Assembly: GCA_963769425.1 (NCBI GenBank)
Contig: CAVYLP010000003.1
Span: 256,001-320,000 of the forward strand
Reading direction: 5' to 3'
Origin: Candidatus Bathyarchaeota archaeon
GTDB taxonomy: Archaea; Thermoproteota; Bathyarchaeia; TCS64
DNA: 64,000 bases
The position numbers were made by a program, and so were the translations under genes. Below are positions 7,863 through 36,436 of this stretch, piece by piece. The notes beneath the pieces are model-generated. The model saw only the letters and a program-made list of their open reading frames with translations. It made no database searches and was not told the origin of the DNA. How positions within the stretch are numbered: position 1 is the first letter of the stretch; every line of letters starts with the position of its first letter.

Positions 7863-8017
7863 ATCTAGTCGATAGATGAGGCTTGGATCTGGAGATTTAA
7901 CCTCTTCGGGGTTAGCCACAGGTGTAAAAACCCATTTTTTTTTATTTATGAACAGTGGCAAAAATTATAGGAACAGGTCCACTGGAGTTGTAGAACTCTT
8001 GAACGACTACATGTTCA

Positions 8018-8254
8018 TCGATTCCTAGTGGCAGGTGCAAAAAGTGATGAATTTCCGGGATACCACCCTACTAGGAATCCACACCCAACCAGCCAGTGAG
8101 CCATACCACCCTACTAGGAATCAGATTCCTAGTGGCAGGTATCAGAGGGTCGAGGTGAGCACTCCGCGATTCCACCCTACTAGGTATGGGATTCCTACCC
8201 ACAGGTGCGAGTCATACCATGCTACTAGGAATCCGGTTCCTAGTGGCAGGAATC
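8018..8254. repeat. Array A: 8 copies of a 20-21 bp pseudo-palindrome GATWCC-N8/9-GGWATC
   Basis: Copies start at 8020, 8059, 8102, 8124, 8168, 8190, 8213, 8235, e.g. GATACCaccctactaGGAATC and GATTCCtagtggcaGGTATC. Confidence 0.9.
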
Positions 8255-8487
8255 CACGCGGGGTTAGTTGCCATGAGGAAATTCCACTATTTAATCGCCC
8301 TAAAGGGACACAGGAAGATCCATTCGGGGCTTTCGCACTATCTATTCACTATAGATACACGAGTTCGCCCTGTAATTTTGATTTTTTTCGCAGCTTTTTA
8401 ACCCCCACTCGTCGAGGTCCAGAACAAATAATAATCGGTTAACTGTTGTTAATTAAAATAGAGCTAAAAAGGCTAGCTTTAAGGAAC

Positions 8488-11146: not shown

Positions 11147-11170
11147 TCACATCATCCCCAGCTGGCGGAG

Positions 11171-11263
11171 CGGGCCTGAGGGGATTTGAACCCCTGACCA
11201 ACGGCTCTCTTCGACCCTAAGGTCCTAAAAGGCCGACGCTCTTCCTTGCTGAGCTACAGGCCC
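11171..11263 (-). tRNA. tRNA-Lys(TTT) with a 19-nt intron at 37/38 (11207..11225)
   Basis: GGGCCTG/CAGGCCC acceptor stem, GGTTCAAATCC T-arm, BHB motif CTTT-TAG...GAAG-AGA. Confidence 0.93.
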
Positions 11264-11443: not shown

Positions 11444-11537
11444 GCGGTCGTAGTCCAGCCTGGTAGGACGCCAGCCCCCCACGAGTGTTTCTCGGGGAAA
11501 GTTGGTGACCCGGGTCCAATTCCCGGCGACCGCACCA
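11444..11537 (+). tRNA. tRNA-Gly(CCC) with an 18-nt intron (11482..11499), encoded CCA, atypical C33 and C55
   Basis: GCGGTCG/CGACCGC acceptor stem, ACCA end, BHB motif CCCC-CAC...GGGG-AAA. Confidence 0.85.
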
Positions 11538-27998: not shown

Positions 27999-28274
27999 TT
28001 AGACCCCTTGCTCGATTAACTGCCTAAGCGCGGCAACCTCGCCCTTCAACTCGCTAAGTTCCGCGTCCCTCAATAATGGGGTAGCTACGCCGACAGCCGA
28101 CACGATAACACGGCCCAAACCCATTTTCTCAGTATTCGCGCTATTCTTCAGATACAACTTTGTGAATGCTATATGGCAAACCTCATCAAGATAAAGCAAT
28201 AATGACGCCCTATCAAGACTCGGCTTATCACGCAACTTCTCAAGGAATACCTTGGGCTTTTCAACCGCAACCAA
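27999..28274 (-). CDS. Hypothetical protein with a C-terminal coiled coil
   Basis: 91-aa ORF ending ELSELKGEVAALRQLIE. Confidence 0.5.
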   Translation of the reverse strand: MVAVEKPKVFLEKLRDKPSLDRASLLLYLDEVCHIAFTKLYLKNSANTEKMGLGRVIVSAVGVATPLLRDAELSELKGEVAALRQLIEQGV

Positions 28275-28373
28275 CTCAGTAAAATTTACAGGCGGAAATA
28301 CCTTACATATTTAGATGTGTCGATGCATGGCGGCCAGGCGTTGCCTCCCCGCGTTAGGATGTAAGTGATAGAA

Positions 28374-28739
28374 CTATGGGATATGCAATGTTTGAATCCT
28401 ATTATGTTTCTTTATCTCATCCTGTGTTTTGTTTTCTTTATCTGCTTTTTTTTGGCAATCATCTTCGTAGAGATATGCTCCTAAAATATTCACTGATTTG
28501 TATTTCACCCCATTCTTGTTAAGCTCATCTTGTTTCTTATTTCTGAATTCTCTTATTGCTCTATCAGTGTATTTCGCGTCTTCCGGTTTAGTGCGGAATA
28601 GAACCAATTTTATTTCAATATACTCGCATTCTGTGATAGATTCCTCAATTGGTTTATCTTGGTAAATGATTTTATAGGGTATCCAATATTTGAATAGTTC
28701 ACCCTCTAAAATGTTATCCGATGTTCTCTTTCCACTCAT
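28374..28739 (-). CDS. Hypothetical protein
   Basis: 121-aa ORF in AT-rich DNA. Confidence 0.55.
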   Translation of the reverse strand: MSGKRTSDNILEGELFKYWIPYKIIYQDKPIEESITECEYIEIKLVLFRTKPEDAKYTDRAIREFRNKKQDELNKNGVKYKSVNILGAYLYEDDCQKKADKENKTQDEIKKHNRIQTLHIP

Positions 28740-28828
28740 CTCAGGTCGATTAAGGTTTATCAGTCAATGGAGATTAAATTTTCTGTTAGGCGTGTTTAAT
28801 CTCAAATTTTCCATCCGTGGGCGTAAAT

Positions 28829-29053
28829 TCAAGAAAAGGGATTCCAACTTTTCTTCTCTTTACATCTATGATTTTCAGGTATATGGTGCGAAGAACACAA
28901 CACTTTACCGCATTTATGACACTTGTAGGCATTCTCAGATTTAGTTTGCATAAACCGTTTACCACAAAAACTACATCTAAGATAATGGTCACCCTTGATG
29001 GTATTCGACGTATTTGATTTACTAGTTTTTTTAAACCAATTTAGCGGATTCAT
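28829..29053 (-). CDS. AN1-type zinc finger protein
   Basis: CSFC..CHKCGKVLCSSHHIPENHRC matches the AN1 Cys/His pattern. Confidence 0.8.
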   Translation of the reverse strand: MNPLNWFKKTSKSNTSNTIKGDHYLRCSFCGKRFMQTKSENAYKCHKCGKVLCSSHHIPENHRCKEKKSWNPFS

Positions 29054-29068
29054 ATCCCCGCCACAAAA

Positions 29069-29626
29069 CGAGAACTGTCAATTTAATATTTGAAACCTTG
29101 GCGAGCGAGCGCACCCGATCCTCATCATGATAGTCTATTAATAAATTTTTAATATAAATGGAGTTCTAAATAAAAAAAGAGGATAGTATTGAATCTTAAT
29201 TCTATTATTTTTCCGACTGTTATCGTAGTTATATGTGTTGCCCTCCACGAATTAGGTCATTTTACAATGGCTAAATACTTTAAAAGATCAGCATGGTTTA
29301 GAGTAGGAAAAGTAAAAGGTATCCCTGCCATCATCACGTCTCATAAAAGAGAATTTGAGATTCATACTTATGTAGATTTGAAAAGGGCATTTAAAGAAGA
29401 GATTAAAATAACTCAAGCAGGTCTTCTAAGTGTAGTTTTACCACTATTCTTAATTTGTCTTTATCCCGCATTCTGGCAATTCTTTTTTATTGTCATCTTA
29501 CTTTTTATGATTTATACTATTTGGGAAATAGAATTTATAATTAATATCGAAGTCGAAAAAATTGAGAAATATAGTCTTTTCTGAATATTTGCATTAAGGC
29601 GAGAACTGTAAATTTAATATTTGAAA
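29069..29626 (+). repeat. 27-bp direct repeat pair (29069..29095 and 29600..29626)
   Basis: CGAGAACTGT(C/A)AATTTAATATTTGAAA, one mismatch. Confidence 0.85.
29189..29584 (+). CDS. Small M50-like membrane zinc-peptidase-type protein
   Basis: TM segment followed by HELGH; later AG plus TM segments. Confidence 0.6.
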   Translation: MNLNSIIFPTVIVVICVALHELGHFTMAKYFKRSAWFRVGKVKGIPAIITSHKREFEIHTYVDLKRAFKEEIKITQAGLLSVVLPLFLICLYPAFWQFFFIVILLFMIYTIWEIEFIINIEVEKIEKYSLF

Positions 29627-29640
29627 TTTAGTACATATTG

Positions 29641-30177
29641 TTAAGCGAATAGTAAGGAAGGGTAGAAATAATAACTCCAATAGTTTATGCCAATTAAAAT
29701 AATGCTTAATATAATTAACATATAGAATGGTTTATGATCATTAAATATTCTAGCCATATAGTTTCTCCATCGCATTTTGAGTTCTGGTTTATTCTTATAT
29801 TTCCCAGTTCTTTGAGAAAACTCAGAGGCCGCTCTTTTTAAAAGATATAGTTGACTAAAATCGTAATTATCTGAATATTTTCCTTTTTTGCTCTCCTCTT
29901 TATTCGCTTCTATAAATCCTTCCCCAGTATATGTTTTAACATACATAACTGCCTCAATAAGGATTGAATAGTATCCTGCTCTGAGTAAAAAATAAGTCAT
30001 ACTTAAAAGAGACATCAATATAAACACAAAGAAGTTAAAATGAAAAGTGCTTATTATATCCCGCGCACCTAAAAGGGCTATTACTGTAGCTACCAAATAG
30101 CCAATATGAGCATGACTTTTTTGAGTAAACAAATTAATTAAAGTTGATCGAGTATTTTCTAATTCGTCCGCTACCAT
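29641..30177 (-). CDS. Hypothetical membrane protein
   Basis: 178 aa, three hydrophobic segments. Confidence 0.6.
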   Translation of the reverse strand: MVADELENTRSTLINLFTQKSHAHIGYLVATVIALLGARDIISTFHFNFFVFILMSLLSMTYFLLRAGYYSILIEAVMYVKTYTGEGFIEANKEESKKGKYSDNYDFSQLYLLKRAASEFSQRTGKYKNKPELKMRWRNYMARIFNDHKPFYMLIILSIILIGINYWSYYFYPSLLFA

Positions 30178-33750: not shown

Positions 33751-33981
33751 CTACTCGAGGACCACCATCGTCAGAGTTGACCTGACGTGGTTGAGGCGCC
33801 TAACCTTGCTCGTTATGACGTCCTTGATCTCCTGCATCGTGGGGGCTTCCAGACGGACGACGAAGTCGTAGACCCCATAGACGCCATATACCTCCTTGAC
33901 CTCGGGTATCTCCTTCAGAGCCTTGCTGACATCGGTCCCCTCACCGAGATCAGTGTTGATCAAGACAAATGCAACGCTCAT
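33751..33981 (-). CDS. Stand-alone Lrp/AsnC ligand-binding domain protein
   Basis: AFVLIN..VYGVYD..STLTMVV. Confidence 0.88.
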   Translation of the reverse strand: MSVAFVLINTDLGEGTDVSKALKEIPEVKEVYGVYGVYDFVVRLEAPTMQEIKDVITSKVRRLNHVRSTLTMVVLE

Positions 33982-34388
33982 GGATGAACCTCAAATGATC
34001 CCTCAACGGGAACTGATTTAACATTTTCTAGGGTTGAGACGTGCGGGAACATATTGTAAATACAGTCAGGCTATGATATTGCCATGTTCATGTTTCTAAC
34101 GATATAAAAGTAAGTCAAGACCATCAATCATCCAAAGCACCCTGAACCTAGACCCAATCCGACTGAATTTCCATCAGCCTTCTCCGGTAAGGTTGGTAAG
34201 TATGAATCGGCGCGTTTTTCAAGTCTCCCCCATGATGGTAGCATAGTATAAGCGTTTTACAGAATAGCTTAATGACTCCTCACCGGTCCTTTGCGATGAT
34301 TCATCTGAGATTGAGTTCACCCGTATGGGTATCGACTGGAGAAGTGGAGGTTCGTTGGGTGGAGTAACATGTTTGCTGGTTGGTCGCG

Positions 34389-34742
34389 TATGCCTCGCTG
34401 GTAGGAATAAGGAAAAACATCACTTTTTGCACCTGCCACTAGGAATCGAGACTCGTTACGCTAACCAACAGTTGGTCTGTGGTACACAGTAAGGGGGTAC
34501 AACGGTACCCGGTAGGAGGGTACTTGGTACCATGTAGGAGGGCACCGACGGTACCCAGTAGGGTGGTACCATGGTACCCTGTAGCGTGGAACCGGCGCAC
34601 GGGATCTGTGTAACATGGTACCATGTAGCAGGGAACTCGATACCACGTAGTATGGTATATGGTACCCTGTAGGGTGGTACGGGGGACCCATTAGGGGGGT
34701 ATAAGGTTTTTTCCACGTCTCGGTACCATGTAGCAGGGTACA
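34389..34742. repeat. Array B: about 12 copies of a 20-21 bp motif, mostly GGTACC-nnGTAGnnn-GGTACN
   Basis: Copies start at 34389, 34428, 34481, 34504, 34526, 34550, 34573, 34617, 34639, 34661, 34683, 34722. Confidence 0.92.
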
Positions 34743-35121
34743 GCGTGTTTTACGCCTCCTTTTGCTCTTCCTAGTGAAGATAAATCTTCGTTTGGAGGAG
34801 GACTGCTGAGACATTCAGGCTATGTGCGAGGCGGTCTGGGCCTCCTCTACTGGTGTCGTTCAAGATGGTTCTTTTCGCTCCCATGGCTAGTTGATGCCTT
34901 GCCTTGGGGCATGTAGAAAACTCATGGGATTTGCTCCTGCAGCAGGGAATATTGTGTGTAAGGATGGTGGTGAGCCGCTATGCTGGTATCCTTCTTTCTT
35001 CAGGGTAGGGGGTAGATGGATGGGGTATTCAACATGATTTCAAAGAGGAAACAGAAGCGTATACCGGCGACTTCTAATTTAACCTTGGAAAGTTGACTTT
35101 TACAGGTAAAAATCGGGGATT

Positions 35122-35152
35122 GTTCGTTTAGTGTCGAGAAACAATTCGACAC
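35122..35152 (+). promoter_or_regulatory. Putative operator upstream of the thiolase
   Basis: GTTCGTttagTGTCGAgaaacaatTCGACAC, immediately before a TATA-like TTCTTAA. Confidence 0.5.
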
Positions 35153-35197
35153 AATTCTTAACCCAAACGCCGACGGAGGTCAACCTAGGCGTAGGGC

Positions 35198-36436
35198 TTG
35201 GGTCTGCATAGGGGAGTATCTATAGTCGGCGCGGGGATGACTAGATTTCACAACAGGCTCCACGTCGATAAGACGGGGAGGGAACTGTTCGTTGAGGCTG
35301 CACTCGACGCGGCTGGATCCGTTGACAATGGCTTCAGATTCAGAGACGCTGGAGCTCTCTTTGTCGGCAATTTCACGAGCGACGTCTTCGAGGGGCAGGC
35401 GCACACGGCCGCGGTGATGGCGGATTGGTTGGGCATTAACCCTACACCAGCTTATCGCATTGAGGACGCATGCGCGAGCTCGGGTGCTGCACTCAACCTC
35501 GGAGCCATTACAATCGCATCGGGGATGGCTGACGTCGTCATAGTCGGCGGCGTCGAGAAGATGAGTGGGCTCACCACAGATCAGGTCACGGACGCGCTCG
35601 CCCTCGCGGCTGACTCATCCTTCGAGACCTCCGTCGGCTTCACCTTCCCATCTATATACGCGGCGATAGCCTCGTCATACTTCAAGAAGTACAACGCCAC
35701 CTGGGACCAGCTTGCAGCTGTCACCATCAAAAACCACAAGAACGGTGTCCTCAACCCGAAGGCACAGTTCCAGTCAGACATTATTGCGACAGGAAAGAAG
35801 ATTGGAGAGAAGAGCGGCAGAAAATTTTCAGATGAGATGGAGTTCCTACGCTCGGATCTCAACCCCGTTATCGCCTCCCCGCTGAGGCTATTCGATTGTT
35901 GCCCTGTATCAGACGGCGCCGCCGTTGCGATCTTGGCAGCTGATGAGGTGTCGTGGAAGTATACGGATACGCCGGTTAAAATGATAGGGATGGGGCAGGC
36001 TAGCGACACAATCGCCCTGCACAGTAGGCCTGACTTCACCACCCTCAGGGCAGCCGTAAAAGCTTCAGAGGACGCCTACAAAATGGCGGGGGTTAAACCG
36101 AGGGCAATTCAAGTCGCTGACGTACACGACTGCTTCACCATAGCCGAGGTGGTCGCGACGGAGGACCTAGGATTTTTCCCCAAGGGACAAGGAGGAAAGG
36201 CGGTCGAGGAGGGCAGAACCGCAATAAACGGCGAGCTACCCATTAACCCAGACGGCGGCCTAAAAGCGAAGGGCCACCCCGTCGGCGCGACGGGCGTCGC
36301 CATGGCTCATGAAATGTTCAAGCAGCTACGCGGGCAGGCAGAACAACACCAAGTCAAGGGGGCCGAGTTGGGCCTCATCCACAACGTCGGAGCCGCGGGG
36401 GCGAGCGTCGCCGTCCAGATATACAGGAGGGGATGA
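35198..36436 (+). CDS. Thiolase (archaeal SCP-x-like acetyl-CoA acetyltransferase)
   Basis: EDACASSG, DCCPVSDG, HDCF, GHPVGATG. Confidence 0.93.
   Translation: MGLHRGVSIVGAGMTRFHNRLHVDKTGRELFVEAALDAAGSVDNGFRFRDAGALFVGNFTSDVFEGQAHTAAVMADWLGINPTPAYRIEDACASSGAALNLGAITIASGMADVVIVGGVEKMSGLTTDQVTDALALAADSSFETSVGFTFPSIYAAIASSYFKKYNATWDQLAAVTIKNHKNGVLNPKAQFQSDIIATGKKIGEKSGRKFSDEMEFLRSDLNPVIASPLRLFDCCPVSDGAAVAILAADEVSWKYTDTPVKMIGMGQASDTIALHSRPDFTTLRAAVKASEDAYKMAGVKPRAIQVADVHDCFTIAEVVATEDLGFFPKGQGGKAVEEGRTAINGELPINPDGGLKAKGHPVGATGVAMAHEMFKQLRGQAEQHQVKGAELGLIHNVGAAGASVAVQIYRRG

Follow-up and report, generated by a model that had tools for sequence, protein, structure and literature searches.

The window analysed here, a stretch of 64,000 nucleotides, belongs to an archaeon, as indicated by two 94-nt tRNA genes of intron-containing length and by the ribosomal protein S27ae and Rpb7/RpoE encoded in it. 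The tandem repeats under study, array B, lie between the genes for a small stand-alone RAM-domain protein and a thiolase (Table 1). That this region is free of genes had been noticed before, and the gap between the two coding sequences indeed measures 1,216 bp (33981 to 35198). An ORF of 117 aa can be read across the array on the minus strand (34461-34814), however it has no Pfam match. The paralogous GGTACC arrays of the genome are distinguished from each other by several indels of 1 nt and by the deletion of one whole unit (23 nt), hence no reading frame is kept, and array B is not covered by a conserved ORF. Elsewhere in the window, two divergent tRNA genes, those of 94 nt, were found by ARAGORN at 11170-11263 (minus strand) and 11444-11537 (plus strand), one of them without anticodon assignment; the former is matched as a tRNA by Rfam too. 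Positions 28001-30000 form an island of low GC content (0.35, compared to about 0.58 around it) that could be foreign DNA. Its four ORFs (27999-28274, 28374-28739, 29189-29584 and 29641-30177; 91-178 aa) have no Pfam match.

Table 1. Array B, its surroundings and array A, with positions in the window.
Feature	Position	Strand	Remarks
Array A, GATWCC arms, units in alternating orientation	8016..8264	-	inverted relative to array B
Left flanking gene, 76-aa stand-alone Lrp/AsnC ligand-binding (RAM) domain protein	33751..33981	-	
Lineage-specific insertion, ~1.03 kb	34079..35107		boundaries +/- 1-2 nt
820-bp segment (M1, M2, array B, downstream module)	34129..34948		orientation differs between strains
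Module M1, dispersed repeat	34165..34328	+	four other copies: C4:319k, C3:176.8k, C2:184k, C1:318k
Module M2, ends ...CACTTTTTGCACCTGCCACTAGGAATC	34354..34449	+	~12 other copies, one inverted beside array A
Array B, ten 21-bp units GGTACC-nn-GTAG-nnn-GGTACC	34481..34742	+	GTAG on + strand
Conserved non-unit spacer in array B	34594..34616	+	fills the supposed empty slot
Terminal module: degenerate unit with right arm GGTATAA, then GG, TTTTTT, CC	34683..34714	+	
Final unit	34722..34742	+	39 bp past preceding unit in all four GGTACC-type arrays
Downstream module	34743..34839	+	common to C4:396k copy; weaker match at C2:38k
Right flanking gene, thiolase	35198..36436	+	

The ten tandem 21-mers on which the original prediction was built are real. 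They start at 34481, 34504, 34526, 34550, 34573, 34617, 34639, 34661, 34683 and 34722 and stay in register, with steps of 23, 22, 24, 23, 44, 22, 22, 22 and 39 bp and 1-8 nt between consecutive units. The unit pattern is matched 13 times in the window against an expectation of 0.37, a count of 13 was reached in none of 100 shuffles, and TRF reports a tandem repeat of period 23 at 34480-34584 (score 96). Nine of the ten units match GGTACCNNGTAGNNNGGTACC with at most three mismatches; the tenth (34683), counted by hand, has four. Two details of the earlier description have to be modified. The jump in the lattice near 34595 exists (44 bp being 2 x 22), but the slot described there as empty is occupied by a conserved 22-nt non-unit spacer, and a step of 43-45 bp across such a spacer is also found in three paralogous GGTACC arrays and two GATCC arrays. 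The two units reported upstream (34389-34449) are unit-like motifs, yet they lie inside another dispersed module, M2. Conservation of the arms and the GTAG core against a variable remainder is confirmed by an alignment of the four paralogous GGTACC-type arrays, in which 127 of 158 columns of arms and core are invariant compared to 41 of 102 other columns (Fisher p = 7e-11, an overstated value because alignment columns share ancestry). Pairwise identity is 0.89 in arms and core and 0.66 at the other positions. Thus, variation is strongly uneven across the unit and not uniform as in a neutral minisatellite.

Array B is one of many such arrays. We searched the genome assembly (2.55 Mb in six contigs, C1-C6, 91% complete) and found 21 loci with at least four unit-like cores and about 177 cores in all. 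A pattern of three consecutive units gave 54 matches, compared to 0 and 1 for the reversed-pattern control; looser scans for self-complementary units (129 versus 86 in the shuffle) and for core clusters (60 versus 40) were unspecific and were set aside. Arrays A and B are members of one motif family with locus-specific arms, as proposed, and the array A unit at 8059-8079 (minus strand) matches with three mismatches. Further GGTACC-type arrays with the same internal lattice are located at C4:178.0k, C4:396.5k and C6:520.4k, arrays with GATCC/GGATC arms at C2:38.0k and C4:396.2k, and arrays with TTCC/GGWA arms at seven places of the curated set and at C2:143k; an additional arm class reads TGTTCC...GTGGAAC. 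At C4:396013-396689 (about 396.0-396.8k) A-type, GATCC-type and GGTACC-type arrays follow each other head to tail on one strand. All arm classes have in common the GTAG core and a terminal motif, GGTATAACG-TTTTT, and units of 20-24 bp are built throughout the family as (arm ...TWCC)-nn-GTAG-nn(n)-(arm GGWA...). There are 24 genomic occurrences of the terminal motif, written as G[GT]ATAA[CG]G(N)TTTT, against one in a shuffle, and each of the 24 has at least three unit-like cores within the preceding 120 nt, always on the GTAG strand. Arm classes and modules are combined in differing order from locus to locus. Copies are 75-94% identical to each other, hence there is no sign of very recent bursts. 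This layout bears on another account of the arrays, a neutral minisatellite whose units were born locally by slippage and carry no meaning. Unit number does vary between paralogs and between orthologs, and the overall rate of change is close to neutral (see below). However, the modular layout recurs at about 21 unlinked loci, indicating that arrays were copied rather than born in place, and the strongly non-uniform variation over unit positions also speaks against this account, which we judge very unlikely.

All 18 array loci that were inspected lie between ORFs. The adjacent genes are unrelated housekeeping genes, for example those for ABCE1, S15, RpoB, HisRS and TatC, and the arrays are oriented at random with respect to the genes nearby (11, 8 and 9 out of 25 for three window sizes). 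A gene consistently linked to the arrays, which the original prediction suggested looking for, was therefore not found at the 18 loci. Seven paralog clusters of at least three members exist in the genome, none of them a multi-copy transposase; the largest is an M20-peptidase-like family of seven proteins of about 480 aa with weak matches to Peptidase_M20, including C6:898523-900016. One of these paralogs lies directly beside the array at C6:900.2k. Only one of 18 loci lies within about 500 bp of a tRNA gene as predicted by ARAGORN, which disposes of a general linkage to tRNA genes. Likewise, GGTACC is not avoided in the genome (observed/expected 1.04, with 39 of 573 sites in the four GGTACC-type arrays), so that no oddity of restriction sites is involved.

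Comparison with relatives reveals that the arrays are insertions of limited distribution. Among 17 genomes of the same genus that were searched, 13 hold the thiolase ortholog and in all 13 the spacer in front of it is only about 190 bp long and has no array. This short spacer between RAM gene and thiolase contains both promoters and a conserved palindrome. In the window the palindrome, GTGTCGAG-N5-TTCGACAC, is found at 35131-35153, immediately ahead of the promoter of the thiolase gene; allowing for variants, it is conserved in the 13 congeners and thus looks like an operator for fatty-acid degradation genes. The spacer of array A, from DUF1805 to S27ae, is without units in all nine congeners read (orthologs in 14), and no array is present in six of six congeners read for the S15-Ham1 spacer (16 found) or in six of six for the spacer upstream of the D-aminoacyl-tRNA deacylase gene (13 found). 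Hence, at four of four loci compared the congeners have an empty site with the flanking genes kept. About 360 bp of the 1.03-kb insertion have no other copy in the genome, and the insertion was therefore not one simple transposition; neither a target-site duplication nor a common target could be established. By BLAST, one of 40 relatives (G002) has arrays of the family. When 400 other genomes of the class were scanned for the three-unit pattern, 16 had one or two matches, which is the control level, and unit arms are found only in G002, a congener. In this relative there are two small arrays with GATACC/GGTAT arms, each adjoining a tRNA gene (Glu and Gln, respectively) and an M2-like module. 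A match in another relative (G009), obtained with an earlier pattern that was ill-suited to GGTACC arms and had seven matches in the own genome, is coding DNA and not an array. Searched in 185,579 species genomes, the terminal-motif pattern gave a single match, by chance; in metagenomes one of 15 matches is a real family member. A chance match on a marine metagenome contig (L081) drew attention to an unrelated, perfect tandem repeat of the 24-nt unit GTAGGATGGTATAAAGGTGCCCTG with at least five copies in low-GC sequence. Taken together, copies of these modules entered numerous intergenic spacers, unrelated to each other, during the recent ancestry of one species group.

The original prediction had considered a centromere- or origin-like role. 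Tandem 22-bp units in a long gene-free region do resemble iterons, and a replication origin (an ORB or iteron array) or a chromosomal centromere would have this appearance. Nevertheless, such a role is extremely unlikely. An archaeal origin would be expected at one or a few loci per chromosome, linked to an Orc1/Cdc6 gene and conserved in position among relatives, yet about 21 loci with 24 array ends are spread over 2.55 Mb. The only Orc1/Cdc6 gene, recognised by its Cdc6_C match (C1:24396-24674), lies on another contig than array B, 85 kb from the nearest array there, and no Rep or partition gene is found among the Pfam-labelled neighbours. Moreover, the congeners examined are without arrays (13 of 13 at the thiolase spacer) and one orthologous array evolves at a near-synonymous rate. 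GC skew is flat on all six contigs. The centromere motif of SegB, given as TCTAGA-S-TCTAGA in the available text of PMC12284271, is unlike the array units.

A metagenome contig (L080) allows the evolutionary rate to be estimated. It is the ortholog of C6:257.7-259.9k, to which it is 94.1% identical over 2,181 nt, and has arrays at the same site. In these orthologous arrays 282 of 340 aligned positions are identical (83%) and 83 further positions are gapped, the gaps being a 59-nt deletion and a whole-unit deletion, while third codon positions of the flanking genes are identical at 544 of 624 (87%). Thus, the arrays as a whole drift at about the neutral, synonymous rate. Parts of the unit are held: the left arm is identical at 54 of 55 positions, the right arm at 50 of 59 and the GTAG core at 36 of 44, compared to 12 of 23 for the two bases before the core. 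Such data have to be weighed when the arrays are regarded as platforms with a function for the host, coated by a probably dimeric, sequence-specific DNA-binding protein with sites two helical turns apart, serving nucleoid organisation, insulation or silencing and having spread through their benefit to the cell. The period of 22-24 bp is in line with this proposal, as are arms and core conserved above background and the step across the non-unit spacer, which is kept in six arrays. In addition, the dyad-like arms TWCC/GGWA shift together between classes (TACC/GGTA, ATCC/GGAT, TTCC/GGAA). However, in TTCC arrays the right arm reads GGTA half of the time and then lacks complementarity to TTCC, and the overall rate is about synonymous with whole-unit and 59-nt deletions. 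Arrays are lacking in the congeners examined at four of four loci and in at least 398 of 400 other genomes of the class, no candidate protein is at hand and the neighbouring genes are unrelated. We therefore consider a host platform rather unlikely. Recognition of the units by a protein is plausible.

Conservation is higher in the terminal motif than in the units, and read on the opposite strand the motif resembles an archaeal BRE/TATA element. Considered along with the T-run of the GTAG strand, such a sequence would be expected of transcription units more than of inert DNA. Each array might accordingly be a small transcription unit for a non-coding RNA made of tandem short hairpins, which could sequester protein as a sponge or undergo processing into units, with the terminal motif as U-tract terminator when the GTAG strand is transcribed or as BRE/TATA promoter for the CTAC strand. 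In favour of this idea, the motif with its run of T5-8 stands at 24 of 24 array ends in a single fixed orientation, the promoter of the adjacent RAM gene (AGAAAA-TG-TTAAATC) is similar to the motif in reverse complement (GAAAAAA-CG-TTATACC), and across the genome TTATA[CT] has its peak 30-40 nt ahead of start codons. Both strands also fold better than shuffles (z of -3.3 and -3.2), but good folding on both strands follows from the self-complementarity of GGTACC. Against an RNA stands the missing covariation: RNAalifold on four paralogs gives a covariation term of +1.25 with one of 71 pairs compensatory, and in neither of two hairpin phases is there covariation of the variable arm base (24 of 84 versus 20.6 expected, and 17 of 66 versus 15.8). 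Outer arm bases of the type GGAAG...CTTCC appear compensatory, however counting reveals no covariation there. Divergence is neutral-like with whole units lost, and positions 33950-35250 give no Rfam 15 match with E <= 1. Over the window as a whole, a tRNA is the only feature to reach an Rfam gathering score. A non-coding RNA is, in our view, unlikely.

The DNA around array B rearranges. An 820-bp segment that includes the array (Table 1) is joined on the opposite strand, 34127/8 to 34948 or 34964, in contigs of three metagenome runs from three studies that are about 97% identical to the window, with matching sides of 41-136 nt. A perfect 151-nt contig from a fourth run crosses 34128 in the orientation of the window. 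The piece therefore exists in both orientations among strains, the result of either a one-off inversion or a switch. Only AT, repeated at 34127-34128 and 34949-34950, is shared at the joint and inverted repeats of at least 10 nt are lacking at the ends of the segment. It is bordered by AT...AT inside CAAT...ATTG, and its removal would leave the palindrome CAATATTG. Array B itself has a gap in cover at 34462-34609, a stretch crossed by no contig of the four runs. Arrays gain and lose whole units and the surrounding DNA is rearranged, including an 820-bp inversion among strains.

A bolder proposal unites the terminal motif with the inversion and takes the arrays as working parts and autonomous cassettes, in which the invariant terminal motif, as promoter or terminator, accompanies a string of GTAG sites for one lineage-specific protein, with arm classes as addresses and the 820-bp segment as a switch. 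If this were true, the GTAG-centred sites would be produced as a string or bound as one, the arm classes would address paralogous binders, and the 820-bp segment would direct the cassette to either of the two genes beside it. The family would then be an undescribed archaeal regulatory or sponge system and a recent coloniser of the genome. We regard this combination as quite improbable.

The reading that we favour is that array B is one module of a lineage-specific, mosaic family of non-coding intergenic repeats that is self-copying; on balance, we think this somewhat more likely than not. The family would be built from a leader, a run of 20-24-bp units, the motif GGTATAACG-TTTTT, one last unit and linkers such as M1 and M2. 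Its elements may spread as non-autonomous DNA, copied by an enzyme that is either absent from this assembly or not recognisable, or else by recombination and template switching. A trans-acting copying protein would recognise the conserved arms, the GTAG core and the terminal motif. A dedicated role for neighbouring genes, in replication or in segregation would not be expected. We propose that a protein reading arms, core and terminal motif is the reason for their conservation. It would be either a mobilising enzyme or a binder of the host; a host protein with a cellular role could just as well account for the conserved arms and core. No mobilising enzyme was found. In the 91% complete genome there is no match to Y1_Tnp, Resolvase or the TnpB zinc ribbon, with working controls, and a single match to Phage_integrase, a tyrosine recombinase. 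Six DDE_Tnp_1 genes are present and the ends of their elements are unlike the array units. A MITE of a resident IS was rejected for this reason, and the ends of the insertion carry no inverted repeat.

Mosaic repeats of the REP, BIME and BOX type are well known in bacteria, and to our knowledge the way in which they spread is understood only for those accompanied by a RAYT enzyme. BOX elements of Streptococcus pneumoniae have the layout boxA-boxB(n)-boxC, are intergenic and lack a transposase of their own. The arrays resemble them in having a fixed head, variable tandem middle units and a fixed tail and in being dispersed between genes, but differ by the absence of any sequence relationship, by units of 21-24 bp instead of about 45 bp, by several arm classes and by the archaeal host. 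MIRU of Mycobacterium and STAR of Staphylococcus are interspersed tandem repeats at tens of intergenic loci with strain-variable unit number. Related tandem units at tens of intergenic loci are found here as well, but unit sizes and sequences are different and the units, which have dyad arms, are accompanied by mosaic partner modules and a fixed terminal motif. Plasmid iterons and centromeres, such as the 22-bp iterons of R6K, sopC of F or parC of pSK41, are single loci beside Rep or Par genes. Like these, the arrays consist of direct repeats with a period near 22 bp and internal dyad elements, but they occur at about 21 loci and have no Rep or Par gene nearby. A CRISPR array, in which unique spacers of similar length would part the repeats, was rejected, since the units abut and a crude genome scan revealed no repeat-spacer array.

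Closest in several respects are GTAG-tagged REPs, short high-copy extragenic units with self-complementary arms that are clustered, tandem, mosaic and species-specific, as far as the available text describes them (Di Nocera et al., 2013, PMC3733652). GTAG combined with self-complementary arms, tandem clusters, mosaics with other motifs and species specificity all recur in the arrays. According to the same text, GTAG stands at one end of the stem-loop in REPs, whereas it lies between two arms in the arrays. When the array unit is re-phased in the manner of a REP, GTAG is placed 2-3 nt 5' of a 4-6-bp stem with a loop of 1-8 nt, and the variable arm base shows no covariation. Stems of only 4-6 bp and an archaeal host are further differences; the available text of PMC3733652 names archaea only in its reference list. 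Copy number and extragenic location are similar, with about 177 cores at 21 loci compared to the more than 100 copies per genome given for REPs in the available text of PMC2817692. A RAYT match (PF01797) is lacking in the 91% complete genome, while the control was positive in 6 of 14 reference genomes. In BIMEs, units follow each other at regular distances and alternate in orientation. Here, alternation is seen only in A-type arrays, and array B, the TTCC arrays and the GATCC arrays are all strictly head-to-tail. A classical REP was rejected on these grounds, namely the lack of a Y1_Tnp gene, GTAG between the arms and the head-to-tail order of most arrays. Our best reading is that GTAG-tagged REP clusters, BIMEs, BOX and MIRU/STAR are the nearest known kinds and that the family is not a member of the REP/RAYT system. 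Loosely defined palindromes have been reported in archaea by a tool paper (PMC12306157, as far as its available text goes). In full-text literature outside the subscription journals we found no description of such Bathyarchaeia arrays or of archaeal GTAG-type tandem arrays.

The family thus occupies about 21 loci in an uncultivated archaeon. It comprises several arm classes, underwent its expansion in a single species group and has no recognisable mobilising enzyme. The clean contrast between filled and empty sites, together with the orientation variant, makes it a good natural case for studying how repeats are copied in archaea, and it is equally suited to asking what reads the signature of GTAG plus arms. 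Arrays of this kind break short-read assemblies and could therefore serve as strain markers. A separate duplication is present in the same genome: a sequence of 1,276 bp occurs twice with 99.7% identity (C3:50800-52075 and C6:1003708-1004983), with one copy adjoining a DDE transposase gene and the other about 4 kb from an array locus.
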